Positions 8,289 to 63,070 of a stretch of DNA of 64,000 bases are shown here, piece after piece (position 1 is the first letter of the stretch; each line of letters opens with the position of its first letter). The notes beneath the pieces were generated by a model. The model saw only the letters and a list, made by a program, of their open reading frames with translations. It was not told the DNA's origin and did no database searches. The stretch lies in NCBI GenBank assembly GCA_031424235.1, contig JANPHB010000209.1, forward strand, positions 33,608-97,607. Reading direction: 5' to 3'. A program made the position numbers and the translations under genes. This stretch comes from Pirellula sp. GTDB lineage: Bacteria; Planctomycetota; Planctomycetia; Pirellulales; Pirellulaceae.

Positions 8289-8479
8289 TAGCACGACGCG
8301 CAAGTTTTGAAGTTGCACTGAATTGAGAAATGTAGCTGAATTCGTGAGAATTCAGACGCTTTGCAATCAAGACGCGGCCAGAATTCTCACGAATTCTACT
8401 ACAAAAACACAAGTGTGCAACTTCAAAACGCGCAAGCTAGTGATTCCACCATGAATTTCACTAGTTTGCGCGTCGTGCT
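8289..8479. mobile_element. Composite: MITE-like unit (8305-8428) nested in a TAGCACGACGCGCAAG palindromic repeat
   Basis: Perfect 14-bp TIR TTTTGAAGTTGCAC/GTGCAACTTCAAAA; CGCGCAAG direct repeats at 8297-8304 and 8429-8436; internal GTAG REP doublet at 8332-8402. Confidence 0.75.
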
Positions 8480-9798: not shown

Positions 9799-10992
9799 AT
9801 GATGATTATTCGACTTGTAACGAATCCAACGAGTACACTCCTGGCCTTGATTGTACTTCTAAATGGTCTGGTTTTCGTGGGCGTAATAGGCTCGAAACGG
9901 TGCTTGGCTTCCGAGAATTGCCCGTTTTGCCCTGCAGCTTCACAGACGTTGCGGCAGGAAATTGCGTCGATGGACGCGGCCGCTATCGGTCGACTGAATG
10001 CAGATGGAAAGAACAGCATCGAGGGGCTGGCAACTTTTACCATCCAGAAGGTACTTTCGGGGGACAAACTGATCCGAAAGGATCAAGCGATCGAAGCCAG
10101 CTATCTTGGCCCCACAAAAACAGAAAAGAACTTTTTGCTTCTCGGAATCGACCCGACACGTTTGCTCTGGAGTTCTCCGCTGGCTTTGTCTTCCGAAGCA
10201 GAAAAGTACATTGAGGACATTCGAACGTTACCTGATTCCCAAAGCGAACGCTTAGAGTTTTTTCAAAAGTACTTTGAGCACTCCGATCCTTTAATCGCTC
10301 GGGATTGTTTCGACGAGTTTGCGCTCGCACCGTATTCCGATGTACTCGCGCTCAAAGACAAGATGGATCGCGAGAAATTGCTCGGTTGGGTTCAGGACAA
10401 CAAGAAGGCTCCAGATCGCAAACGACTGTACTTTACTATGCTAGCGATCTGCGGAAAACCGGAGGATGCCATGCTTCTCGAATCCATGATCAAAAGCGAG
10501 AACCCAGAAGCCAGAGCAGGCCTTGATGCTCTTTTGGCAGCCTATCTGACACTCAAGGGAGAAAAAGGCTTGGAGCTTGTAAAGGAATCCTTTTTGGACA
10601 ACGCGCACTGTCCGTTCGCGGACATCTATTCCGCCGTCATGGCCTTGAGGTTTCATGGTACCGAAGCCAACATTCTATCTAAAGAGTCTGTTGTTGGTGC
10701 GATGCACCGATTGCTCGAAAGACCCGACCTAGCCGACCTGGTGATTCCCGATCTAGCTCGATGGAACGATTGGAGCCAAGTTGCTAAGGTTAGCAAACTC
10801 TTTGAAAAAGCGACTGACGAAACCAATTGGGTTCGAGTCCCCGTGATCAACTACCTGAGAGCCTGTCCTTTACCCGAGGCGCAGGCTATGTTGACCAAGC
10901 TTGAGAAAATCGACCCCAATGCATTCAAACGGGCAAAGACTTTTTTTCCAATACCATTGCCGGCATCCCCCAAAGTCGGCGGCGTAGAATGA
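9799..10992 (+). CDS. Secreted hypothetical protein with N-terminal CPFC motif (paralog 1, no C-terminal anchor)
   Basis: Signal peptide, then 'ENCPFC'; colinear with the adjacent 11087-12520 gene. Confidence 0.85.
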   Translation: MMIIRLVTNPTSTLLALIVLLNGLVFVGVIGSKRCLASENCPFCPAASQTLRQEIASMDAAAIGRLNADGKNSIEGLATFTIQKVLSGDKLIRKDQAIEASYLGPTKTEKNFLLLGIDPTRLLWSSPLALSSEAEKYIEDIRTLPDSQSERLEFFQKYFEHSDPLIARDCFDEFALAPYSDVLALKDKMDREKLLGWVQDNKKAPDRKRLYFTMLAICGKPEDAMLLESMIKSENPEARAGLDALLAAYLTLKGEKGLELVKESFLDNAHCPFADIYSAVMALRFHGTEANILSKESVVGAMHRLLERPDLADLVIPDLARWNDWSQVAKVSKLFEKATDETNWVRVPVINYLRACPLPEAQAMLTKLEKIDPNAFKRAKTFFPIPLPASPKVGGVE

Positions 10993-11086
10993 TCGATGCG
11001 AACCAATGATTAAGATCCAATGGGTTGCTCTGAGTAGCAATCGTAAAGATGCAATCGCAAGAACTAGTAAGAGGCTGACAAAAACC

Positions 11087-12520
11087 ATGATGATTCGTTT
11101 GATTGCTCCTGTGCTTGGAGCGCTGATGATATCTTCCGTCAACGTACACACTGCGATGGCCGAAGAGAATTGCCCATTCTGCTCGGCTGCCTCGCAAACG
11201 CTTCGCCAAGAAATTAAGTCGATGGATGCGGTGGGAATCGGCAGATTGGAGACCGATGGCAAACCCGATGTGGATGGCATTGCCATGTTCAAAATCGAGA
11301 AGGTGCTTTCCGGTGAAAAACTGATCTCCGTGAACCAAGCGATCGAAGCGAGTTACTTTGGGCCAGGCAAATCCTCTAAGAAATTCCTCCTGCTGGGAGT
11401 GGACCCGAATAAGCTGCTTTGGTCATCCCCCCTCCCGCTATCCGCAGACGCTGAAAAGTATGTTGAGGAGATTCAAAAACTGCCTGAGTCGCAGGTCGAA
11501 CGGTTGGAGTTTTTCCAGAAGTACTTTGAGCATCCGGATTCTCTCCTGGCTCGCGATAGCTACGATGAGTTTGCGTTGGCTCCCTATGCCGATGTGGTTT
11601 TGCTCAAGGACAAAATGGATCGAGAAAAGCTATTGTCGTGGGTTCAGGACACATCCAAGTCGCCGGACCGCAAACGACTCTATTTCACAATGCTTGCCAT
11701 TTGTGGCAAACCAGAAGATGCCGTTTTGTTTGAGTCGATGATTCGAAGCGAAACTCCAGAAGCCCGAGCCGGACTGGACGCGCTTCTTGCCGCTTACCTG
11801 ACTCTCAAGGGAGAAAAAGGACTAGAGCTCATCAAAGAAGAATTCTTCGACAATGCCCACAGTCAGTATGCGGACATCTATGCCGCAGTCATGGCACTGC
11901 GTTTTCACGGAACCGAGGGCAACGCACTGCCCAAAGAATCGATTACGAAAACCATGCACCGGCTTTTGGAACGCCCAGATCTCGCGGATTTGGTCATTCC
12001 AGATCTGGCCAGATGGAGCGACTGGAGCCAACTCGAGAAAGTCTGTGAACTGTTCGAAAAAGCGACCGAAGACAACAACTGGGTACGCGTTCCGGTGATC
12101 AACTACTTGAGAGCCTGTCCGTTGCCAGAAGCCAAAGAAATGTTGATCAAACTGGAGAAAATCGATCCAAACTCCGTCAAGCGAGCCAAGACGTTTTTCC
12201 CGATTCCATCGCCTGCCGCACCCAAAAAGTTGGACAGTTCGTCCTCCATCCAAACGAAAACCTTGGATCGGGCTCTTGTTTTGAACGCGAATCGCACGTC
12301 GATTCGTGTTGCCTCATTGGATGATTCCGTCGCAATTTCGCAGCTCATTCAGACGCAGACCAGCGGGCCAATGGCAGCCCTTCCCGCTGTCGGCAAATTG
12401 AACCTTTGGGCCTCGTTTGTCGTAGTCATTTTGGCGACGGTGATGCTCGCGTTGGTAATGTGGAACATCGCAACCAATGGAGGCATGGTCGCCAAAATGG
12501 TGCTTAACCGAGTTCGCTAA
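11087..12520 (+). CDS. Secreted hypothetical protein with CPFC motif and C-terminal TM anchor (paralog 2)
   Basis: Signal peptide 'MMIRLIAPVLG...AMA|EENCPFC'; extra ~100 aa ending in a hydrophobic helix 'LWASFVVVILATVMLALVMW'. Confidence 0.85.
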   Translation: MMIRLIAPVLGALMISSVNVHTAMAEENCPFCSAASQTLRQEIKSMDAVGIGRLETDGKPDVDGIAMFKIEKVLSGEKLISVNQAIEASYFGPGKSSKKFLLLGVDPNKLLWSSPLPLSADAEKYVEEIQKLPESQVERLEFFQKYFEHPDSLLARDSYDEFALAPYADVVLLKDKMDREKLLSWVQDTSKSPDRKRLYFTMLAICGKPEDAVLFESMIRSETPEARAGLDALLAAYLTLKGEKGLELIKEEFFDNAHSQYADIYAAVMALRFHGTEGNALPKESITKTMHRLLERPDLADLVIPDLARWSDWSQLEKVCELFEKATEDNNWVRVPVINYLRACPLPEAKEMLIKLEKIDPNSVKRAKTFFPIPSPAAPKKLDSSSSIQTKTLDRALVLNANRTSIRVASLDDSVAISQLIQTQTSGPMAALPAVGKLNLWASFVVVILATVMLALVMWNIATNGGMVAKMVLNRVR

Positions 12521-12599: not shown

Positions 12600-13286
12600 A
12601 TGAGCCAAGACATTTCAGACTCCAACGACACCCAATATGCTGCCGAGGATTCCGACGATTTCGTATACAAGTCGCTGAGCCGCGCGGCCATGCTCAGCTT
12701 GGTTTTCGGTTTGTTTAGCCTACTAGCATGGATTTCGCCCATGCTGCTATTTTTGCCCGCCATCGGACTTGTTTTCGGCATTATTGCAATTAGCAATCTG
12801 AAGAGGTACCCCAACGAATTGATTGGAACCCCAATCGCTTGGCTCGGACTCATTATTAGTACTGTGATTCTTATCGGTTCCCCAGTGAAACACATCTATG
12901 TCTACAACACAGAAGTTCCTGAGGGATTTGAGCGAGTTCAATTCGCGGCCTTGAAGAGCCCGATCCCAGAGTTTGACTTTCCAACACCCGAGGCAAGAGC
13001 GCTTAACGGAAAGAAAATATTTCTCAAAGGCTATGTGCATCCTACATCGATATCGAGCAGTTCATCCAAAACATTTGTCTTGGTACCGGACTGGGGTACT
13101 TGCTGTTTCGGAACGCAGCCGCCACTGACGCACATGATCCAGGTTCGATTGGTGAATGATGGATACGCCTATAAATCGGTTCGCCAACACTCGCTGGCCG
13201 GTACTTTCGAAGTGCATGACTACAAACGGCCGGTTGAAGGTTTGGATGGGGTATACTACGAGCTAGAAGCCGAGCACTTTCAGTAA
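12600..13286 (+). CDS. DUF4190-like membrane domain plus DUF3299-like domain protein
   Basis: TM hairpin followed by 'LNGKKIFLKGYVHP...FVLVPDWGTCCFG..PP...I.V' (DUF3299 signature). Confidence 0.8.
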   Translation: MSQDISDSNDTQYAAEDSDDFVYKSLSRAAMLSLVFGLFSLLAWISPMLLFLPAIGLVFGIIAISNLKRYPNELIGTPIAWLGLIISTVILIGSPVKHIYVYNTEVPEGFERVQFAALKSPIPEFDFPTPEARALNGKKIFLKGYVHPTSISSSSSKTFVLVPDWGTCCFGTQPPLTHMIQVRLVNDGYAYKSVRQHSLAGTFEVHDYKRPVEGLDGVYYELEAEHFQ

Positions 13287-13292
13287 CGCAAG

Positions 13293-13940
13293 GTAGCAGG
13301 CACATTCCATGTGCCATCCGCCCATGAGGGCCGAAGGCTCGACACATCCTCTGCCGGTGCCGTAAGCACCGGACTTGCTATTCCCAAGGATTTCAAGGCC
13401 CGAAGAGGCTGTGGAAAAATGTAGGACGCCCTTTTTAGGGCGTCGAAATTGGCCGTTTTTTGCAGTAACGACGGCCTGAAAAGGCCGTCCTACGAATAAA
13501 TTCACAGTCTCGAAGGGCCCACACACTCGATCATGTGTCGCCCCTTCCGGCAACGCTTTGAAGTATTTTCGAGAATTGGGTAGCAGGTTTCGTGAGTGAT
13601 GCAATCGAATCGTCATTGAATGGTTCTTGAACTCAGATTTCTCACGAAATCTGCTACAAAAGATTGCAAAAATTGCTTCACAGCGTTGCCCCTCCGGGCT
13701 CGTCTCCCGATTGGTCTTCGCACCGTGGCTCATCAGCCTCATCTTTACCCACATCTTTCAACATGAAACTCCAATTCCCCGGGGTTTTCGTACTCGTACT
13801 CGTACTCGATCGGATGGACAATCGAGTACGAGTACCATTTCATTGAGTACGAGTACGAGTACGAAATCTTTCCAAAAATTTGGGAAAAGATGAGGCTTAT
13901 CAGCCACGGCTAGGGATATGTCGGCCTTTCAGGCCTAATT
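13293..13940. mobile_element. Multi-layer composite repeat region: REP scaffold with at least three inserted TIR-bounded units
   Basis: Units at 13406-13510 (CGAAG duplicated), 13551-13688 (9-bp near-duplication) and ~13723-13909 (enclosing a (GTACTC)n palindrome); GTAG REPs at 13293, 13421-13493 and 13580-13657. Confidence 0.75.
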
Positions 13941-13996
13941 TGCGCATCTTAAAAATGCTTAAGCGGGGATAAGCGAAAGCAATCGGCCGCTTGCTT

Positions 13997-15967
13997 TTAC
14001 TCATTCGTCTGGAGTACTGGCGGCATGGGGCACCCCAGTGCATCCGAGATAACTCGCAATAGCTCTAGCTCTCGCACTTCGACCTTTCCATCTGCGGCGA
14101 TGCAAGCGGAACACGCAGCTAACATCGAGCGTTTCATCGTGCCTTGAGAATGCTCCAAAATATTTAACGCTTCATCGAGTGTTTTCAGTATGCATTCCGC
14201 ACTTGGGCTCAATTGCAATCCCTTGGCTATGTTTGGCACCGCCGCTAGTCCTGCTGCAAACGCCTTTTCCACTGTGTTCGTTTCGTTACCCAATCTTGCT
14301 AAAGTGGACAATACCGTTTGGAAACTTTGCAACATCGATTGCGTTGTGGGAGCCGAAGCGACTCTGTTTTTGCGTTGCAAGCGGTCAGCCAGTCTCTTTG
14401 AAATGAATCTCTGGATCGCAAACTCAAAAATCGTCCACTTGCGATCTGCCTCGATCAGTGCACGCACGTTTTTGCGAAACGCGATGGCTTGATTCGGCGA
14501 CAATTGATGAAGCGATGGCAGTGCCAAACAAGCCATCGGTAGTCGCTGCTCGTCTGCCAATGAATCCACGTGCGACAGAACTCGATTGAGCTCGCTCATG
14601 ACGCGATCATCGGTCGACGTCGCGAGCATTTGAATCTGCTGACTTCGAACTGGATCGTCCGAGGGAGCCAAAAGAAGTGCGTAGACGATAGCAACCGCAC
14701 CGAGCGGGTCGCGTATGTCTTCTGTCAACAGATCGTCCATTTCCTCGACCATGTGTTGAGCATGTACGAAGTGTTCAGGACGAGGCTCACCGATATGATC
14801 GACAGCTTGCTGAGGGCTTTGTTCATGACTCGCAGCTCCTGCCACCGCCGCTTGATGCACGTCGGCAAACGAGGATCGAGCAAGTGACAAGGAGCGTGGA
14901 TCGATCATTTCGGCTTCCGAGTGCGCTACCTTGTTGGTTGTTTCAAACACGCCATCAAAACGAGGATCGATTCTCTTGATGCGAACCGGAAGCGCGGGAT
15001 GGGTTGCAAACAAGTGCGAAACGACTCCCTCACCGAAAAACATATGACTTGCCTCAGAGGCGTGGGGACTAGCAAGCTGTGATTTCTGTGCCCAACCTCC
15101 AATGCGTTTCAAGGCATCGCCGATCCCATTTGGATTGCGGGTAAACTGCACAGCGGACGCATCGGCCAAGAACTCACGCTGTCTCGATACAGCGGCCTTG
15201 ATGAAATTTGCAAAGAACACGCCAATGTAACCGATCGCGACCAGCGAACCGCCCACGGCAGCAAATGCGGCGACCAACGCGAGAGTCCCTTTGTTGTCTT
15301 CGCTATTACTGCTGCCAGATCGAATTCCGACCTCACCTAATATTCGCAATGTCCAATATCCAATCAAGGCGATCAGCAAGATACCATTCAGCATTCCCAT
15401 TAATCGCAAATTGAGCCGCATATCTCCGTTGAGAATGTGACTGAACTCATGTGCGATCACCCCTTGCAACTCCTCTCGTTTGAGAGTCATAATCGCTCCC
15501 TGAGTCACGCCAATGACTGCGTTTTGAGGGGTTGTTCCCGCAGCGAAGGCGTTGATCCCCATTTCTCGCGGCATCAAGTAGACCGGCGGCACGGGCGTTC
15601 CAGATGCCAAAGACATTTCTTCGACAACATTTAGCAAAATGCGTTCAGCGAGCACTCCCGTATTGGGCGGAATCCTGACACCACCCAACGCCAGTGCAAC
15701 TTGTTCTCCGTCGCTACCCAAAGACCAGATCTTGTACAAGCTGCCGATCAAGATGATCGCTGTCACAACCGTCGCAACACTTGTCAGTAAGATCGGATGC
15801 CATTCAAAAAACGAAATGGGGCGTTCCGAAGTTCGTGTTGCAGCAACAACTATTCCAAGAAGCGCAGCGTAAACCGAAACAATCACCATAACGACGGCGA
15901 TAATGAAGTAAAGAACGAGAAGTGAAGTCTTGCGCCGTGCGCGATCTTGATGCTCGAAAAAGTCCAT
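13997..15967 (-). CDS. M48 family (HtpX-like) zinc metalloprotease with C-terminal extension
   Basis: 'INAFAAG', HEXXH (HEFSH), 'SRQREFLADASAVQFTRNP', 'THP'; paired with lemA. Confidence 0.92.
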   Translation of the reverse strand: MDFFEHQDRARRKTSLLVLYFIIAVVMVIVSVYAALLGIVVAATRTSERPISFFEWHPILLTSVATVVTAIILIGSLYKIWSLGSDGEQVALALGGVRIPPNTGVLAERILLNVVEEMSLASGTPVPPVYLMPREMGINAFAAGTTPQNAVIGVTQGAIMTLKREELQGVIAHEFSHILNGDMRLNLRLMGMLNGILLIALIGYWTLRILGEVGIRSGSSNSEDNKGTLALVAAFAAVGGSLVAIGYIGVFFANFIKAAVSRQREFLADASAVQFTRNPNGIGDALKRIGGWAQKSQLASPHASEASHMFFGEGVVSHLFATHPALPVRIKRIDPRFDGVFETTNKVAHSEAEMIDPRSLSLARSSFADVHQAAVAGAASHEQSPQQAVDHIGEPRPEHFVHAQHMVEEMDDLLTEDIRDPLGAVAIVYALLLAPSDDPVRSQQIQMLATSTDDRVMSELNRVLSHVDSLADEQRLPMACLALPSLHQLSPNQAIAFRKNVRALIEADRKWTIFEFAIQRFISKRLADRLQRKNRVASAPTTQSMLQSFQTVLSTLARLGNETNTVEKAFAAGLAAVPNIAKGLQLSPSAECILKTLDEALNILEHSQGTMKRSMLAACSACIAADGKVEVRELELLRVISDALGCPMPPVLQTNE

Positions 15968-19769: not shown

Positions 19770-19980
19770 CGCGTTAGCCAAATGGCACTCACTTTGTTAG
19801 CGGAACGGCGCGAGCCGTCCGGTGAGTATCCTAGTAAATGACGCGAAACCGGCGGGCTTGCGCCCAATGGCACTCACTTTCGATTGGAACAGGCAAATTA
19901 CTGAGCCGCGGGCGCTAGCCCAGGTTTCCACGATCACTCGACATTCGTCGGGAAACGCGGTAACGACGTTCGGCTAATTT
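19770..19980. repeat. Cluster of ATGGCACTCACTTT / TAGCGGAACGGCGCGAGCCGTCCGG repeats
   Basis: ATGGCACTCACTTT occurs twice here and again near 36131; TAGCGGAACGGCGC(G/A)AGCCGTCCGG recurs near 39270. Confidence 0.65.
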
Positions 19981-21339: not shown

Positions 21340-21393
21340 TTCATTATCCTAAATTCTAGTGGCAAGTTTGTGAGCACCGCTCCAAACATCCTT

Positions 21394-21455
21394 CGGGAGA
21401 GCGAGGCTCCTGCCGAGCTGCGGCACCATGGTTCGGCAGGAGCCTCACCCTCCCG
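21394..21455. repeat. REP-like palindrome family A (GGGAGGGCGAGGCTCCTGCCGAGC), copy 1
   Basis: ~24-bp stem; further copies at 28355, 41069 and 44469. Confidence 0.85.
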
Positions 21456-21515
21456 AGTAATGAATGAATGTTTGCAGGTGTGGCTTGAGGCCCTCGTCAC
21501 AGTCACTCATCTTCT

Positions 21516-28159: not shown

Positions 28160-28244
28160 CACCAATCTTCCTGCCACCAATCTTCCTGTCACCAATCTTC
28201 CTGTCACCAATTTTATGACAGGAAAATGGATGACAGGAAAATGA
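28160..28244. repeat. 15-bp tandem repeats (CACCAATCTTCCTGT x3.6) followed by 2 related inverted copies (ATGACAGGAAAATGG)
   Basis: Units start at 28160, 28175, 28190 and 28205; inverted units at 28215 and 28230. Confidence 0.85.
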
Positions 28245-28354
28245 ACGCGATCTTGCCACGAAAAGACACAAAACTCACAAAGGATGCGCTGCAGGATAAA
28301 CAGGACCTGCTTTCAACATGTTCTGTTCGGCTTCACCCAAGCAATTTGTTCTTC

Positions 28355-28415
28355 GGGAGGGTGAGGCTCCTGCCGAACCGTGGCGCTGCAAGCTCGGCAG
28401 GAGCCTCGCTCTCCC
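28355..28415. repeat. REP-like palindrome family A, copy 2
   Basis: Near reverse complement of the 21394 copy. Confidence 0.85.
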
Positions 28416-28515
28416 TTGGTTTCTAAGGGAGTTGACAAAGCTAAGATGTTGAAAGCAGTGGGATATTTGGAAGCCGTGGGATAAGCAGTAGGCTTTGTCG
28501 GTGCTGTTCTGTTGA

Positions 28516-29706: not shown

Positions 29707-30440
29707 CACGAAGCGCAAGCTAGTGAAACGATCAGGCGAACAAGTGAAACCATCGGGAAACTCACTAGCTTACCTAGTCATGCCGAAGAAGCGTTGGGAC
29801 CTACAATCGATAAAAATTCCATAGTCGTGAAAGAACTCTCTTTTCACGTTGTTTTCTTGGTTGGGGACAGTTCAGAGCAAGGTAACTTTCGGCAAGAGGA
29901 GGCAGTCTCACTTTTTTGAGGAAGTGTTTTTAGCCGTGAAACGGCGACAGTTCGTAGCTGCGGGGCTCGCCCCGCAGACACCTTTAGTAATCGAATGCAG
30001 GAGCCGTGAAATGGCGCCACCACACAGTGGCGCCGTTTCACGGCTCTCGTATTCAACGTGCCTAGAAACCCTGGGGCAAGCCCCACGGCTACGAAGTGCC
30101 GCCGCTATCGCGGCTAAGAAACAAAGCGGTCGTCGCTTACCAGAAAATCGCAACAGTCGTGTCAGCCAGTTGTTGGGAATATCCGATGGCATGGGTTGGG
30201 ATGATTTGGAAGTGCGCGAGCTCAATACTGGCTCAGCTTACTTTGGACGGTAAAAAACGGCACTTCTCGGCGATCGCCACCATTTTTCCTATGCCTATGC
30301 GTGGAATCCCGCAGGCTTGTCCTGCGGATCGTTAGGTTTTTAGCTACGCACTGAACGCTCCGTCATTCGCTCGTGCCCCCGGATTTGCCGAAGGCAAAAC
30401 CGGGGACACGAGCGACAGTCGCGAAGAGAGGGTTTAGTAG
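29704..30440. repeat. Cluster of palindromic repeats between convergent genes
   Basis: TAGCACGAAGCGCAAGCTAGTG at 29704; GTAG doublet 29954-30092 enclosing a gagccgtgaaatggcgcca hairpin; gctcgtgccccgg...ccggggacacgagc at ~30369-30416. Confidence 0.7.
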
Positions 30441-36038: not shown

Positions 36039-36282
36039 TATTTTAGGCCACTTGTGCAAGAGAGCGGATGTGAGGTAATACCGCTAATCATATTCGATTT
36101 GGACTGAAATGTGGCGATAAGCAGGAACACATGGCACTCACTTTATTAGCGGCACGGCGCAAGCGGGCTTTCGGGTTCAGTCGTTTAACAGTCAGCCGTA
36201 GGCGTACTTCGTTTTTTGCCCTCGTTCCAGGGCTCAGCCTTGGAACGCACTGCTTCGATCCATTGTGTTCCCAGGCGGAGCC

Positions 36283-36411
36283 CAACGCGGTGAAGCATTG
36301 TGTAGCGAAACTTGTCAAGAGTTTCGGTCGTTAAAGCGATGCAGCCGAAAGTCTTGACGACTTTCGCTACAAAAGCCTCGTTTTAACAGCGAAAAATGCT
36401 TCACAGCGTTG
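36283..36411. mobile_element. 129-bp MITE-like element (TIR CAACGC(G/T)GTGAAGCATT) with a GTAG REP doublet
   Basis: 17-bp TIR with 1 mismatch; perfect 9-bp flanking duplication GGCGGAGCC (36274-82, 36412-20); inserted in a CCCAGGCGGAGCCTGGG palindrome. Confidence 0.85.
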
Positions 36412-39231: not shown

Positions 39232-39306
39232 TTGAGAGATAGTAGCTAGCGACAAATGGCGATCACTTTGCTAGCGGAACGGCGCAAGCCGTCCGGTGAG
39301 TGACTT

Positions 39307-39373
39307 CGTTTAACAGTCAGCCGAAGGCGTACTGCCAAAGGAATGCGGTACGCCTTCGGCTGACCGTTAAACG
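39307..39373. repeat. Palindrome family B (CGTTTAACAGTCAGCCG(T/A)AGGCGTAC), full copy
   Basis: ~26-bp stem; other copies at 36182 (half), 41315, 46011, 50322 and 54189 (half). Confidence 0.85.
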
Positions 39374-39387
39374 AGTAAACCCTCGCA

Positions 39388-41009: not shown

Positions 41010-41068
41010 CTTAGGATTATCGCCCCCGCTAATCCAATTCTTCACTCGGTAGGGCGAGTTCTTCATTC

Positions 41069-41129
41069 GGGAGGGCGAGGCTCCTGCCGAGCCATTGCGT
41101 CGCAAGTTCGCCAGGAGCCTTGCACTCCC
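41069..41129. repeat. REP-like palindrome family A, copy 3
   Basis: gggagggcgaggctcctgccgagcc...gttcgccaggagccttgcactccc. Confidence 0.8.
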
Positions 41130-41282
41130 AGTGTTATTCAAATGATTATCCATGACAACGCAAGATCAGAGTGGAAGTAGACTTCAGAGACAACGACGAC
41201 AAAATTCGATTTTCGGACACCTTTTTTATAGGCCCCAGACGAGCTTGTCTCGTCTGGGCCAACGGTTCGATAGGACAAGTGG

Positions 41283-41395
41283 CTTGTTGATTTAGTACTT
41301 GCCCAAATGCACTTCGTTTAACAGTCAGCCGTAGGCGTACTGTCAAAGTAGCAAAGTACGCCTACGGCTGACTGTTAAACGACTAAATCAACAAG
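41283..41395. repeat. Family B palindrome enclosed by 14-bp inverted repeats CTTGTTGATTTAGT/ACTAAATCAACAAG
   Basis: Outer IR at 41283-96 and 41382-95; core at 41315-41381. The same right flank follows the copies at 46011 and 50322. Confidence 0.75.
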
Positions 41396-44435: not shown

Positions 44436-44468
44436 CCCCGGCTACTCGGCAGGGTAAAGTTGACTACT

Positions 44469-44531
44469 CGGGAGGGCGAGGCTCCTGCCAAACCGTGGCA
44501 CCGCGGGCTCGGCAGGAGCCTCGCCCTCCCG
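44469..44531. repeat. REP-like palindrome family A, copy 4
   Basis: cgggagggcgaggctcctgcc...ggcaggagcctcgccctcccg. Confidence 0.85.
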
Positions 44532-44693
44532 AAAATTCTAACTAGACTTGGCATTGCAAAGATGTTTCGATCGCACATGGAATGTTCTAACTTCTCTCTT
44601 TTCGGCTGTTTGGAAATGTGTACAACTTCGATTTGAAATGCTCTGACGCGGTTCGACAGAGCAATTACCCTCCGAATTGCGACTCAAAGTGTC

Positions 44694-45992: not shown

Positions 45993-46010
45993 GCACATCA
46001 TTACGTAATT

Positions 46011-46077
46011 CGTTTAACAGTCAGCCGTAGGCGTACTGTCAAAGCCTGCAAGTACGCCTCCGGCTGACTGTTAAACG
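46011..46077. repeat. Palindrome family B copy between convergent genes
   Basis: cgtttaacagtcagccgtaggcgtac / gtacgcctccggctgactgttaaacg. Confidence 0.85.
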
Positions 46078-46180
46078 ACTAGCTCAACAAGATTTTGAGC
46101 GAGGGGCTAGCGCCCAACGGCTAATGGGGGCGGGTTACCAAGTCACGGCACAAAGTGCCGTGCTACGTTGGGATAGTAAT

Positions 46181-50284: not shown

Positions 50285-50321
50285 CTTCCTTCGCCTGCCT
50301 TGAGCTGATGGCTTTTCATTT

Positions 50322-50490
50322 CGTTTAACGGTCCACCGTAGGCGTACCGAAGAGCATTGGAGTACGCCTCCGGCTGACTGTTAAAAACTGCAAAACGACT
50401 AAATCAAAAGACTCTTCGGTGGCTGGTTTCGTGCGAAACCAGATGCAATACAATGGTTTGTGAATGCCGGTTTCTCACGAAACCAGCTAC
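50322..50490. repeat. Family B palindrome plus GTAG REP doublet (50419-50490)
   Basis: gtggctggtttcgtgcgaaacc ... ggtttctcacgaaaccagctac; same REP type as 8332 and 13580. Confidence 0.75.
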
Positions 50491-50591
50491 ACAGGATGAC
50501 AAGAACGGATTGCGAAAGAAGCACTGTTCAAGTCGAATATACTTCGAACGAGTGATTGTGATGTTTTGTCACTATCTCTTCAAAACGTTTC

Positions 50592-54152: not shown

Positions 54153-54228
54153 TGTGATTTGTTTAATGGCAATACCGTTCAATTATTTGTTTAACAGTCA
54201 GCCGAAGGCGTACTGGGTGAGCCGAGGC

Positions 54229-54975: not shown

Positions 54976-55359
54976 TCAAATTTGATCAAAATACATACGC
55001 ACCATCAATTCACCATTCGAGCCATGAGTGTCTAGAGTCGTCCCTAGGTCCAACCATAGCCTTAGCTTGGTCGCACCCGGATCATCTAAGTTAACACCAA
55101 CCCAGGAATAGGTCCCTTGCAGTTCATGAGTTTGTCCGCTCGGCTCCTGCACGTTTAGTGTGAATTCAAATGCGACGCCGGTTCGTACCAAGATCGCCAT
55201 GTTCGGATCGTCGTTTCTGGGGCGTGCACCCGTTAGCCACTGTGGTTCGGATACTACCCGAAACGTCTCCAGTCGTGAACCAGGGACTTGTTGCTGGAGC
55301 ATCCGCTCAACCTCAGTTCGAATCTCGGCAAATGGTTCATCTGCAAGCCACTTAAGCAT
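54976..55359 (-). CDS. Hypothetical soluble protein; 5' end overlaps a MITE terminus
   Basis: Globular-looking sequence from 'DEPFAEIR'. The track's N-terminal residues are translated MITE/REP DNA. Confidence 0.65.
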   Translation of the reverse strand: MLKWLADEPFAEIRTEVERMLQQQVPGSRLETFRVVSEPQWLTGARPRNDDPNMAILVRTGVAFEFTLNVQEPSGQTHELQGTYSWVGVNLDDPGATKLRLWLDLGTTLDTHGSNGELMVRMYFDQI

Positions 55360-55471
55360 TTTCTCCTGCAAAAACAGGCTTTGTGTAGCGAAAGTCGTTA
55401 AGACTTTCGGCTGCATCGTCTAACGACCGAAACTCTTGACGAGTTTCGCTACATAATGCTTCAAAGTGTTG
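55344..55471. mobile_element. 128-bp inverted, partly degenerate copy of the 36283-36411 MITE-like element
   Basis: Its reverse complement aligns end to end with the 36.3 kb copy, including the GTAGCGAAACTCGTCAAGAGTTTCG doublet. No TSD is discernible. Confidence 0.8.
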
Positions 55472-60654: not shown

Positions 60655-60727
60655 GGCCCCGTCGTCTAGAGGCCTAGGACATCGCCCTTTCACGGCGGTA
60701 ACACGGGTTCGACTCCCGTCGGGGTCA
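60655..60727 (+). tRNA. tRNA-Glu (TTC); CCA not encoded
   Basis: Acceptor GGCCCCG/CGGGGTC; anticodon stem TCGCC/GGCGG with loop CTTTCAC; T-arm GGTTCGACTCC. Confidence 0.96.
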
Positions 60728-61973
60728 TTACGTTTAGTTTCAGTAGCCATCCGGCACCATCAGAACCCTGCAATTTGCAGGGTTTTTTTGTTTCCTGATT
60801 TGCTGCGATGGTTCCCGAATCGCTATTGATGGGGGAACCGGTGGGGGGACGGAAAGCAATTGCCTTTTCGAAATGGGTGTCAGTCACTTGAAGGTAGTGC
60901 TTTTCAGCTACCTTTCCGGAATGCCCAAGCCACTTGTTTACAACGTGATCGGGAAACGCTTCTTGCAACTCCGTTCGCCGTGTGGATCGCAGATTTACGA
61001 AAAGTTTCGGCCATGATGTGAGCCCAGCCGATTCGACGATGCGAATGAACTGGGTTCGAAGGTTCATTTCCGAACCGCCTCGATAACGATTGATGCAATA
61101 AATTGCCCCCTTTGGCGCAAGCTCCCAAGCTTCATCTATTGCGAGTTTGATTTCAGGGAACAACGGCAGAAACCTTAAACCGGTTTTTGGTGAATCGATT
61201 CGTAGGCGATTCCCTCCCCAATCTACATCAGTCCATTTCAGCCCTAAAACTTCGCTTGGACAACGCAAACCCCCGAAACGTGTCAATGCGAAGATCAACC
61301 GCCAATCAGAATCAGGGCTCGCCTCTTTGATTTTGATCGAATCCGCGATCGAAACGAAGTGATGCCTTGCCGAGTTCGATTCGGATCCGCCTTTGATGTC
61401 TGCGAACGGGCTTTCGCCTAGCAAACGGTCCCTTACCGCATGTTGAAACATCGTTTTGGCTCGCTTGCAATGCTTCGAAACGGTTGCGACGGCCATCGGT
61501 CTAGCGGTCATCCAACGCTTCCACCGATCGCCGTCGGCTTGAGTCATCGATTGCAACGCGGTCTTCTCTCCAAAGTACTCGACCAATAGCCGGCGGGTCT
61601 GTTTGTAGTTGATGTCGGTTGTTGCCTTGATGTCACTACGGCCGGCAATGTACGAATCGAGAAACGGCCCAAGAAGCTTTCCTTCGTCGGTCGAGAGCTT
61701 TTGAGATATTGGACTGGCAAGCCCCCACGAAACCAAATTCTCTCTAAGCTTGCCGGTGGTTCCGTTCGCCCATGCTGTAGCATCAACCGCCGGGGAAACA
61801 TTGTTTGATTTCGCTTTGGAGAGCTCGTCACAATGCTGAGCAACTAGATTCGCCTGCCGTTCAGATTTCTTCGTTAGACCTGCAATGTAAAGCTCTCGCC
61901 GTCTCGAGTCGACGTAGAAACGAATTCGAAAGCCTTGCCGGCCATCTTGATCAAGCCTTGAAACACTTGCCAT
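60690..61973 (-). CDS. Tyrosine recombinase/integrase
   Basis: 'TRFGGLRCPSE', 'SPKTG', 'FVNLRSTR', 'WLGHS', 'KHYLQ'; N-terminal arm-binding-type region from 'MASVSRL'. The stop codon lies in the tRNA anticodon loop. Confidence 0.93.
   Translation of the reverse strand: MASVSRLDQDGRQGFRIRFYVDSRRRELYIAGLTKKSERQANLVAQHCDELSKAKSNNVSPAVDATAWANGTTGKLRENLVSWGLASPISQKLSTDEGKLLGPFLDSYIAGRSDIKATTDINYKQTRRLLVEYFGEKTALQSMTQADGDRWKRWMTARPMAVATVSKHCKRAKTMFQHAVRDRLLGESPFADIKGGSESNSARHHFVSIADSIKIKEASPDSDWRLIFALTRFGGLRCPSEVLGLKWTDVDWGGNRLRIDSPKTGLRFLPLFPEIKLAIDEAWELAPKGAIYCINRYRGGSEMNLRTQFIRIVESAGLTSWPKLFVNLRSTRRTELQEAFPDHVVNKWLGHSGKVAEKHYLQVTDTHFEKAIAFRPPTGSPINSDSGTIAANQETKKPCKLQGSDGAGWLLKLNVMTPTGVEPVLPP
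60764..60789 (+). terminator. Rho-independent terminator-like hairpin after the tRNA
   Basis: AACCCTGCAA-T-TTGCAGGGTT followed by a T-run. Confidence 0.7.
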
Positions 61974-62089
61974 GAAATCAACTCCTATCAAAGTTGCCCT
62001 ACCTGAAAAAGTGAAAAACCAAGGCAACCGCGATAGGTTCGGCTTTCGGGTTCGATGCCCTAGCCTTGGCTTTTTGTCGTCGTTGTTCG

Positions 62090-63070
62090 TTAGTTCGCTG
62101 TAGCGTTCAATTGGGAATCCAAGAACGCATCTAGTTGTTCGTTCTGCCATTCGTTGACCATGGCATCCATTATTCTGGCTTTTCCGTCTCCGGGTTCTGG
62201 CAACCGGTCGAATCGTTCGCAAGCGCCAGCAAGACGCATAGCGAGTAAGCCAAAGTCGCCTGCAGCGCCGATGTGTCCAGCTTGGATTCCCTTAATGCCG
62301 GCCCTGAGGATCGACACTAGGCCAGCTTTTGCAGTATCCGAATAGCACCGGCCTGTCGGCTTGGACTGAATCGTCGTATTGCTTGCCCCTCCATTCCACA
62401 ATCCGGATAGGAATTGTTCATGAATGGCATCGGCTTCACTGCCCTCGGAATCGCCGTAAGCGATGTCGAGAAGCCCTGAGGCCATCACGCCCAGTTCTTC
62501 CGGTGTTCCGAAACCGATTGGCGTCTCAGTCAGGATCGATTCAATGTGTGAAAGTAGAAGTTTGGTAACGTCCGGATTCAATTCACTCGTTGAAAGCCTT
62601 AGGTGATCGTCAACAAAAATGCTCAAGTCGCATGTTTGAGTGTCGGCATTTTCTGCGTCGCAGGCCTCCGCGCTTTCTATGTCATCGTCTCCGGTTTCCT
62701 CATCGTCTCCGATTTCGTCGTCGGCGGCCGGAAACCATCCCTCTGACCAAAGACTTTGACGGGATTCCAAAATCTCCTGCCAAGTCTCATCGTAAGCTCG
62801 GTGCAATTGCTCGTTCAATTTCGGATCCTTGAGGTCACCAGCAAAGCCGCGGCTAAATTGGTCCGACGGGTCCACGTGGTTGGCGAGCTCCTCTAAATGA
62901 GCGGCAAGTACTCCAAGCCCTGAGGAATCGCAAAGGTCCTCAGAATCGATCAACGCGATCGCATCATTGAGGAGACGTTTTACGACCGTTTTGGTTCCTG
63001 GGGAAAAAACGGTCTTGATTGGGCCTGGATTGCTATCGAAACCGGCGATTGATCGAACTACACTAGCCAT
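62090..63070 (-). CDS. Acidic hypothetical protein with apparent internal helical repeats
   Basis: GGAG RBS before Met 63070; D/E-rich linker; three similar 'G(L/F)G(V/L)(L/M)A'-type helical units. Confidence 0.7.
   Translation of the reverse strand: MASVVRSIAGFDSNPGPIKTVFSPGTKTVVKRLLNDAIALIDSEDLCDSSGLGVLAAHLEELANHVDPSDQFSRGFAGDLKDPKLNEQLHRAYDETWQEILESRQSLWSEGWFPAADDEIGDDEETGDDDIESAEACDAENADTQTCDLSIFVDDHLRLSTSELNPDVTKLLLSHIESILTETPIGFGTPEELGVMASGLLDIAYGDSEGSEADAIHEQFLSGLWNGGASNTTIQSKPTGRCYSDTAKAGLVSILRAGIKGIQAGHIGAAGDFGLLAMRLAGACERFDRLPEPGDGKARIMDAMVNEWQNEQLDAFLDSQLNATAN

Follow-up and report, generated by a model that had tools for sequence, protein, structure and literature searches.

This locus raises the question of how a single spacer between two gene ends comes to hold several palindromes of different kinds, one beside the other. 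The spacer lies in a 64,000-nucleotide stretch of Pirellula sp. DNA, hereafter the window, and occupies the 710-bp interval 13287-13996, which contains three strong palindromic units, here called (i), (ii), and (iii) (Table 1). A first-pass annotation of the same DNA had placed the region between convergent genes and had interpreted it as three units nested within one palindromic scaffold. The convergent arrangement is confirmed, as is the nesting, whereas the scaffold turns out to be a mosaic of several repeat modules. The most probable account, to which we assign a probability of roughly 0.8, is that of nested MITE-like insertions: three non-autonomous elements, mobilized in trans, would have inserted into hairpin tips of a REP-type mosaic.

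Table 1. Genes, scaffold modules, inserted units, and related repeats. Positions are those of the window unless a sister contig is named.
Feature	Position	Strand	Description
DUF4190/DUF3299 gene	12600-13286	+	Left neighbor of the spacer
Single GTAG-headed REP hairpin	13293-13322	+	GTAGCAGGCACA-TTC-ATGTGCC..ATCCGCC; uninterrupted in the window
Scaffold mosaic, left part	13327-13405	.	Outer inverted-repeat arm 13327-13355; hairpin CCGGTGCCGTAAGCACCGG 13354-13372; ends in left half of target hairpin GGCCC-GAA-GGGCC, including left CGAAG 13401-13405
Unit (i)	13406-13510	+	105-bp MITE-like palindrome; ends AGGCTGTGGAAAAAT / ATAAATTCACAGTCT
Scaffold segment	13511-13550	.	Right half of hairpin 1, CACACACTCGATCATGTGTCG, left half of GCCC-CTTCC-GGGC; left duplication copy CCCTTCCGG at 13542-13550
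Unit (ii)	13551-13688	+	138-bp MITE-like palindrome; ends CAACGCNNTGAAG
Scaffold segment	13689-13738	.	Right half of hairpin 2, linker, left half of CCGTGGCT-(C/T)ATC-AGCCACGG; left duplication copy GGCTCATCAGCC at 13727-13738
Unit (iii)	13739-13893	+	155-bp MITE-like palindrome; ends 13739-13758 / 13874-13893
Scaffold, right part	13894-13996	.	Right half of hairpin 3, outer inverted-repeat arm 13908-13936, tail of small palindromes immediately past the M48 gene stop codon
M48 peptidase gene	13997-15967	-	Right neighbor of the spacer; LemA gene next
Family (ii), full relative	36283-36411		
Family (ii), partial relatives	55354-55471, 50413-50505		
Family (ii), subfamily member	8305-8427		
Family (ii), full copy	L010:3370-3500		Sister MAG locus
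TTCGTTTAACAGTCAGCCGTAGGCGTACT...AGTACGCCTACGGCTGACTGTTAAACGA family	36180-36209, 39305-39387, 41313-41395, 46009-46091, 50320-50385, 54186-54215		Long palindrome with 28-nt arms
TCGGGAGGGYGAGGCTCCTGCCGA...TCGGCAGGAGCCTCRCCCTCCCGA family	21393-21456, 28353-28426, 41067-41140, 44468-44541		Second long palindrome
CAAATGGCACTCACTTTGTTAGCGGAACGGCGC... repeat	19779-19827, 36128-36176, 39253-39301		Third intergenic repeat

The right-hand neighbor of the spacer indicates the company in which this DNA belongs. The M48 protein has its closest public relatives in freshwater Planctomycetota/Pirellulaceae MAGs, namely L007 (93% amino acid identity) and L010 (92%), followed by Pirellula MAGs at 59-72% identity. 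The window sequence itself is found mainly in one freshwater-sediment metagenome run, X1, which contains 79% of the sampled words of the window and 79-82% of the sampled 31-mers of the spacer region, and in which contigs of the flanking genes have a depth of ~22-24.

The sequence that surrounds the three units is itself repetitive. The single REP hairpin at the left edge of the spacer has a related copy in L014 and reaches a summed depth of up to 3787 in run X2, the adjoining left part of the scaffold is multi-copy by metagenome depth, and scaffold modules are combined in many different ways across metagenome contigs. GTAG ranks first of the 256 possible tetranucleotide tags ahead of intergenic hairpins in the window (12 occurrences against a median of 2), and the intergenic GTAG-hairpins include those at 13293, 13421, 13470, and 13634. 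A terminator scan returned two hairpin-plus-T-run sites, no more than in shuffled sequences, so that terminators by themselves are an inadequate description of the spacer. Rfam gave nothing near significance in the spacer and yielded only a tRNA and an int-alpA motif in the whole window; a structured-RNA gene reading of the spacer was dropped on the basis of this result.

Units (i), (ii), and (iii) measure 105, 138, and 155 bp and are non-coding. They are crossed by chance ORFs only, and the homologs of these ORFs lie exclusively among other copies of the repeats. Folded as single-stranded DNA, the units give z-scores of -5.05, -4.73, and -7.77, respectively, with 0 of 200 shuffles folding as well in each case. 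For units (i) and (ii), the limits, ends, flanking sequences (CGAAG on both sides and CCCTTCCGG/CCCCTCCGG, respectively), and inner doublets proposed by the first-pass annotation all hold. The inverted ends of unit (i), AG(G/A)CTGTG, are imperfect, with 10 of 15 positions matching by direct reading, and its core consists of inverted GTAGGACG hairpins at 13421-13445 and 13469-13493, with the GTAG-REP doublet itself at 13421-13444 (+) and 13470-13493 (-). Unit (ii) is bounded by an inverted repeat (13549-13569 / 13670-13690) and contains an inner pair, GTAGCAGGTTTCGTGAG / CTCACGAAATCTGCTAC, at 13580-13596 and 13641-13657; its REP content amounts to a truncated GTAG-REP (13580-13596) and a complete one on the minus strand (13634-13657). 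Each of these two units thus holds an inverted doublet in which a GTAG head is followed by a hairpin with a 7-8 bp stem. The annotation had also called the three elements unrelated. They do form three families, but units (i) and (ii) share part of their design, in that each has a GCTGTG(G)AA-type end and, after it, a doublet of GTAG hairpins.

Unit (i) is a single-copy sequence in the window but a multi-copy one elsewhere. About five further copies occur in X1 at genome depth (21-25), with right ends at 13511-13517. Four more copies are present on the JGI contigs L095 and L096, which were reached through the proteins P0002 and P0003 (JGI), matches to a chance ORF crossing the repeats. Three of these four are 91-93% identical to the window copy, and in L095/L096 the similarity begins at AGGCTG and stops at CACAG(T/C)CT. 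The window copy is flanked by a 5-bp target duplication, CGAAG, at 13401-13405 and 13511-13515. The corresponding flanks are CTCCG/CTCCG and CTTCG/TTTCG in L095 and CTTCC/CTTCG in L096, so that the duplication matches at 5/5, 5/5, 4/5, and 4/5 positions and is seen in four out of five copies. The fifth, an old diverged copy in L095 (L095b), has no recognizable duplication. A 19-mer scan of metagenome contigs with unit (i) produced 14 loci, all of them chance matches within unrelated genes, and a 17-mer scan of viral contigs produced no match. As a separate observation, about 18-27% of the sampled words from the stretch 13372-13630, which includes the unit (i) core, are present in many lake, river, drinking-water, and plastisphere metagenomes, and run X4 holds a copy of the core with one mismatch in 98 nt; the core is on these grounds widespread in freshwater habitats.

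Unit (ii) belongs to a larger family, the only one of the three for which self-BLAST of the 64-kb window retrieved relatives, units (i) and (iii) being single-copy there. Its copies in X1 have left ends at 13547-13550, right ends at 13688-13690, and differing flanks. A 9-bp duplication accompanies four copies of the family. In the spacer it is the imperfect pair CCCTTCCGG (13542-13550) / CCCCTCCGG (13689-13697), and the other three are perfect 9-mers of different sequence: GGCGGAGCC twice at 36283, CCTAAAAGG twice in L010, and ACGCGCAAG twice at 8305. The partial copies carry no recognizable duplication. In both of these multi-copy families, then, the length of the duplication is fixed and its sequence is variable, which argues for staggered-cut insertion and against a fixed flanking signal.

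Unit (iii) required a correction of its limits. The first-pass annotation had drawn it from about 13723 to 13909, following an inverted repeat around a (GTACTC)n palindrome. A 36-nt inverted repeat (13723-13758 / 13874-13909) does enclose such a palindrome, but the element proper is shorter: the outer 16 nt of each arm, CCGTGGCT.AT.AGCC, represent a split target hairpin together with the duplicated target and lie outside it. The inverted ends of the element read TCATCTTT(A/T)CCCA(C/A)AT, with the terminal sequence TCATCTTTNCCCA..., and its interior is a three-arm (GTACTC)n / (GAGTAC)n palindrome (13786-13866) with arms at 13786-13817 and 13835-13866. It is bracketed by a 12-bp direct repeat, GGCT(C/T)ATCAGCC, present as GGCTCATCAGCC (13727-13738) and GGCTTATCAGCC (13894-13905) with 11 of 12 positions matching; this repeat comes from the single complete copy with both flanks. 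No fewer than four left ends and three right ends of the unit occur on X1 contigs of depth 22-32, each differently flanked, with the right ends at 13888-13892. A 4-bp duplication combined with longer inverted ends is a less likely description, which arises because the target of unit (iii) is palindromic; it is disfavored by the absence of GGCT immediately past the element end in two of three other right flanks. A protein search with the chance ORF over unit (iii) gave no further copies.

The interior motif of unit (iii) is also found outside this context. Hairpins of the (GTACTC)n/(GAGTAC)n type, as at 13786-13866, are extremely abundant in freshwater metagenomes, with a summed depth of ~6000 in X1, and a simple hairpin of the same type lies at L008:1910-1950 in another Planctomycetaceae MAG. 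Other copies of unit (iii) in X1 adjoin arms of two palindrome families, one of the type seen at 21393-21456 in the window (one such copy adjoins an arm of the TCGGGAGGGYGAGGCTCCTGCCGA...TCGGCAGGAGCCTCRCCCTCCCGA family) and one of the type seen in the spacer of L007.

The question for the spacer as a whole is whether these pieces move separately or together. All three units recur singly, in the source metagenome as well as on other contigs, and keep their ends while the flanks change. Summed depth in X1 ranges from ~50 to ~6000 along the spacer, against ~22-24 for the flanking genes, and the profile shifts at the unit boundaries. The first-pass annotation had named two observations that would tell against it, recurrence of the whole block as one unit and flanking duplications at chance level. 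The depth varies along the block and its pieces end at unit boundaries, so the block as such is not a recurring unit, and the duplications, whose sequences differ between copies, go far beyond chance. Paralogous copies of the scaffold on metagenome contigs supply the complementary evidence, as empty sites at other loci than the one in the window. Those of unit (i) omit exactly 110 bp (105+5), that of unit (ii) omits 147 bp (138+9), and three for unit (iii) omit 167 bp (155+12). At least six X1 contigs read ...GCACCGT|GGCTTATCAGCCACGG, the intact hairpin without unit (iii). The empty paralogs show that the scaffold modules exist without their inserts.

Palindromes between short direct repeats are prone to deletion, and an empty paralog could in principle be the product of hairpin-stimulated slippage between such repeats. 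The corresponding explanation dispenses with transposition altogether: the spacer would be a BIME-like array that arose through local duplication, through recombination, and through the growth of palindromes, with the direct repeats as by-products. The many combinations in which scaffold modules occur across metagenome contigs agree with it. It is nevertheless very improbable, because copies of the units are scattered over unrelated loci and further metagenomes, where both the flanks and the duplicated sequence vary from copy to copy. Slippage deletion is not able to create such dispersed copies, and the length of the duplication is constant within each family.

The annotation had proposed comparison with the orthologous intergenic region of related strains. 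In the sister species L007, where the flanking genes share 88-89% DNA identity with those of the window, the orthologous spacer measures 275 bp and has none of units (i)-(iii); in L010 synteny is lost at the position of the spacer. The L007 spacer (L007:11967-12241) has palindromes of its own, such as TTAGCCGTTGGGCGCTAGCCCCGG...CCGGGGCTAGCGCCCATCGGCTAA, a family that also flanks copies of unit (iii) in X1.

Since the window comes from a metagenome-assembled genome, mis-assembly of high-copy repeats deserves consideration as a source of the apparent nesting. The source run's short-read contigs are interrupted at 13354 and 13917, and in the portion of the runs that was read no 100%-identical independent contig covers either junction of unit (i) or the left one of unit (ii). 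When the proteins of the flanking genes were looked up by exact match, only two short Logan contigs were returned, both of which end in repeats. Artifact is still hardly credible as the explanation, and less so than any other considered here, given that independent X2 contigs at strain depth cover 13625-13817 with 100% identity, that X1 contains most of the sampled 31-mers of the region as noted above, and that the same nesting is repeated on independent contigs, with unit (i) inside REP loops in L095 and family (ii) inside hairpins at 36283 and in L010.

The insertion sites themselves form a pattern. For each complete copy the pre-insertion target was rebuilt, and a site was counted when the duplication was centered on a stem of 4 bp or more without mismatches. 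Seven of nine rebuilt sites qualify: six of the eight that were computed, with stems of 4-8 bp lying exactly on the axis, and that of L010, which was judged by eye. Only ~1.3% of the intergenic axes of the window have a centered stem of this length. Targets of unit (i) are GGCCC-GAA-GGGCC in the window (stem 5 bp), GGCACA-CTCCG-TGTGCC in L095a (7 bp), and GGCACA-CTTCG-TGTG.C in L095c (5 bp); those of family (ii) are GCCC-CTTCC-GGGC at 13551-13688 (4 bp), CCCAGGC-GGA-GCCTGGG at 36283 (8 bp), and, of the same kind, CCCT-AAA-AGGG in L010; that of unit (iii) is CCGTGGCT-NATC-AGCCACGG (8 bp). Two L095 copies of unit (i) occupy the loop of a REP hairpin whose family is represented in the window by the intact copy at 13293-13322. 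The two sites that fall outside the pattern are the L096 copy of unit (i) and the family (ii) copy at 8305, which lies within one arm of a long palindrome. The duplicated sequences are arranged symmetrically around the axis of the hairpin, as in C-GAA-G, GGC-GGA-GCC, and GGCT-NATC-AGCC. Targeting of hairpin tips is thus statistically strong, and the earlier suggestion that REP hairpins act as insertion hot-spots is supported by the contrast between 6/8 computed sites and the 1.3% background. Precedents exist: members of five insertion sequence families target REPs, and in the case of ISRm22 insertion takes place exactly at the axis of palindromy, with 6-bp direct repeats (PMC1525189).

The doublets within units (i) and (ii) suggest another mover. 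The inner modules match the GTAG-REP superfamily, to which the present units add a further layer in that the REP doublets lie within TIR-bounded units. The units could accordingly be REPINs, that is, inverted GTAG-REP doublets spread through single-stranded intermediates by an enzyme of the RAYT type (IS200/IS605-like, HUH/Y1), with the outer inverted repeats as conserved REPIN flanks. The prevalence of GTAG as a pre-hairpin tag in the window and the presence of two inverted GTAG-plus-hairpin modules in each of units (i) and (ii) fit this idea. So does the abundance of the parts, with the REP core reaching a summed depth of ~600 in X1 against ~100-250 for the outer portions of these two units, and so does the variation of stems between subfamilies in which GTAGC and the GTGAG loop are kept. 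For Rhodopirellula baltica, also one of the Pirellulaceae, both GTAG REPs and a large number of tyrosine-transposase genes flanked by repeats have been reported, and GTAG dimers enclosed in longer palindromes are known from several other phyla (PMC3733652).

Several observations make spread of the whole units as REPINs distinctly unlikely all the same. The units bear duplications of fixed length and variable sequence, and insertion of the IS200/IS605 type is not known to yield such target duplications. Unit (iii) contains no GTAG module, and the window has no RAYT or Y1 transposase gene. The paper that describes REPINs uses the terms "duplication" and "direct repeat" solely in unrelated contexts (PMC3116915). 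Given their duplications of 5 and 9 bp, the composite units are not classed here as REPINs.

A search for an alternative enzyme was made within the window. Pfam scanning of its 46 ORFs detected no transposase and no RAYT, and the sole recombinase was a phage-type integrase beside a tRNA-Glu, unrelated to the units of the spacer. Neither the 46 ORFs nor the other loci retrieved include a parent insertion sequence whose ends match those of the units. As the window has neither a transposase gene nor an insertion sequence with matching ends, the class of the enzyme is deduced from the duplications alone.

Under the favored account of nested insertions, the spacer between the two gene ends would have served as a neutral "sink" and would initially have contained a REP-type mosaic in which several hairpins had a GTAG head. 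Three different non-autonomous miniature elements would later have entered it by staggered-cut transposition, every one of them in the tip of a small hairpin of its own, and the enzymes would have acted in trans from other places in the genome. The duplications would then be of 5 bp for unit (i), 9 bp for unit (ii), and probably 12 bp for unit (iii), and such differing lengths point to a minimum of two transposases, and probably to three. A dimeric transposition complex might favor symmetric or bent palindromic targets, which would be a reason for the symmetry of the duplications. The inner GTAG-REP doublets would be structural cargo and would not drive the movement.

Several known systems resemble parts of this locus. 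REP-targeting insertion sequences (IS1397/ISKpn1, ISRm22, ISPpu9/10, and ISPa11) likewise land inside repetitive extragenic palindromes, which are frequently located between convergent genes (Tobes and Pareja, 2006; PMC1525189). The present case differs in that the inserts are non-coding and only 105-155 bp long, in that three families with differing duplication lengths are adjacent, and in its planctomycete host. Bacterial MITEs such as Correia/NEMIS, RUP, ERIC, and Nezha are similar in their small size, terminal inverted repeats, lack of coding capacity, and long hairpins, as well as in their many intergenic copies and target duplications (PMC3733652). Compared with these named MITEs, units (i) and (ii) contain GTAG-REP doublets, and the sequences are unrelated as far as testable, without an Rfam match.

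GTAG REP dimers in longer palindromes (Di Nocera et al., 2013; PMC3733652) and REPINs (Bertels and Rainey, 2011; PMC3116915) have the same inverted-doublet inner modules, and several families coexist per genome in these systems, as they do here. Target duplications of composite units are not described in either paper, whereas they are present here at fixed length, which suggests a mover other than a RAYT. The BIMEs of Escherichia coli are comparable as intergenic mosaics of alternating short palindromes whose modules are reused in many combinations. The mosaic in the spacer differs from them in having arisen partly from demonstrable insertions with duplications and not just as regular REP-linker arrays.

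REP mosaics, MITEs, and REP-targeted insertion are already known in kind. What is new are the element families, the little-studied host lineage, and the occurrence of GTAG-REP doublets together with genuine target duplications. REP-targeted insertion, known for Proteobacteria and full-size insertion sequences, is thereby extended to miniature elements in freshwater Planctomycetota. The locus offers a clean, checkable example of intergenic build-up, in which palindromic repeats appear to draw palindromic mobile elements to their tips and hairpins may in this way grow in layers at safe spots between gene ends. Repeat stacks of this type are also relevant to assembly, as they break short-read assemblies at these spacers.

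The conjunction of GTAG-REP doublets with true target duplications leads to a testable question, namely what moves REPs in Pirellulaceae. A speculative answer, to be regarded as rather doubtful, is that GTAG-REP doublets of this family of bacteria travel as the cores of TIR-bounded units that insert at hairpin tips with true target duplications, and not, or not only, by RAYT-type spread. If this were true, either staggered-cut transposases would have captured REP doublets as cargo, or an enzyme of the Y1/TIRYT type would insert in hairpin loops and leave duplications. Either case would constitute a previously undescribed route of REP dissemination and would explain the layer-by-layer growth of palindromes.

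The remainder of the window holds further repeats. The long-palindrome family TTCGTTTAACAGTCAGCCGTAGGCGTACT...AGTACGCCTACGGCTGACTGTTAAACGA occupies at least six intergenic spots and is also present in the sister MAG L010 (~9870-9940). A second long-palindrome family has four positions, and a third intergenic repeat often adjoins a TTTAACAGTCAGCC palindrome (Table 1). An inverted pair of GTAG-hairpins, GTAGCTGCGGGGCTCGCCCCGCAG, at 29954-29977 and 30069-30092, falls within an ORF of 134 aa (29849-30253), which may be spurious or may contain REPs in frame.

Other features of the window lie outside the repeat families. Directly after the tRNA-Glu (60655-60727) come an ORF on the minus strand (60690-62222), an int-alpA RNA motif (62002-62070, minus strand), and a 1.2-kb gap. 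This ORF is the likely source of the phage-integrase Pfam match, and the region 60655-62222 looks like the edge of an integrated element. A direct repeat of 273 nt with 74% identity (10702-10974 and 11954-12226) is shared by the genes 9799-10992 and 11006-12520, which look like tandem paralogs, and a 15-nt tandem repeat, CACCAATCTTCCTGC, is present in ~3.6 copies at 28160-28214.
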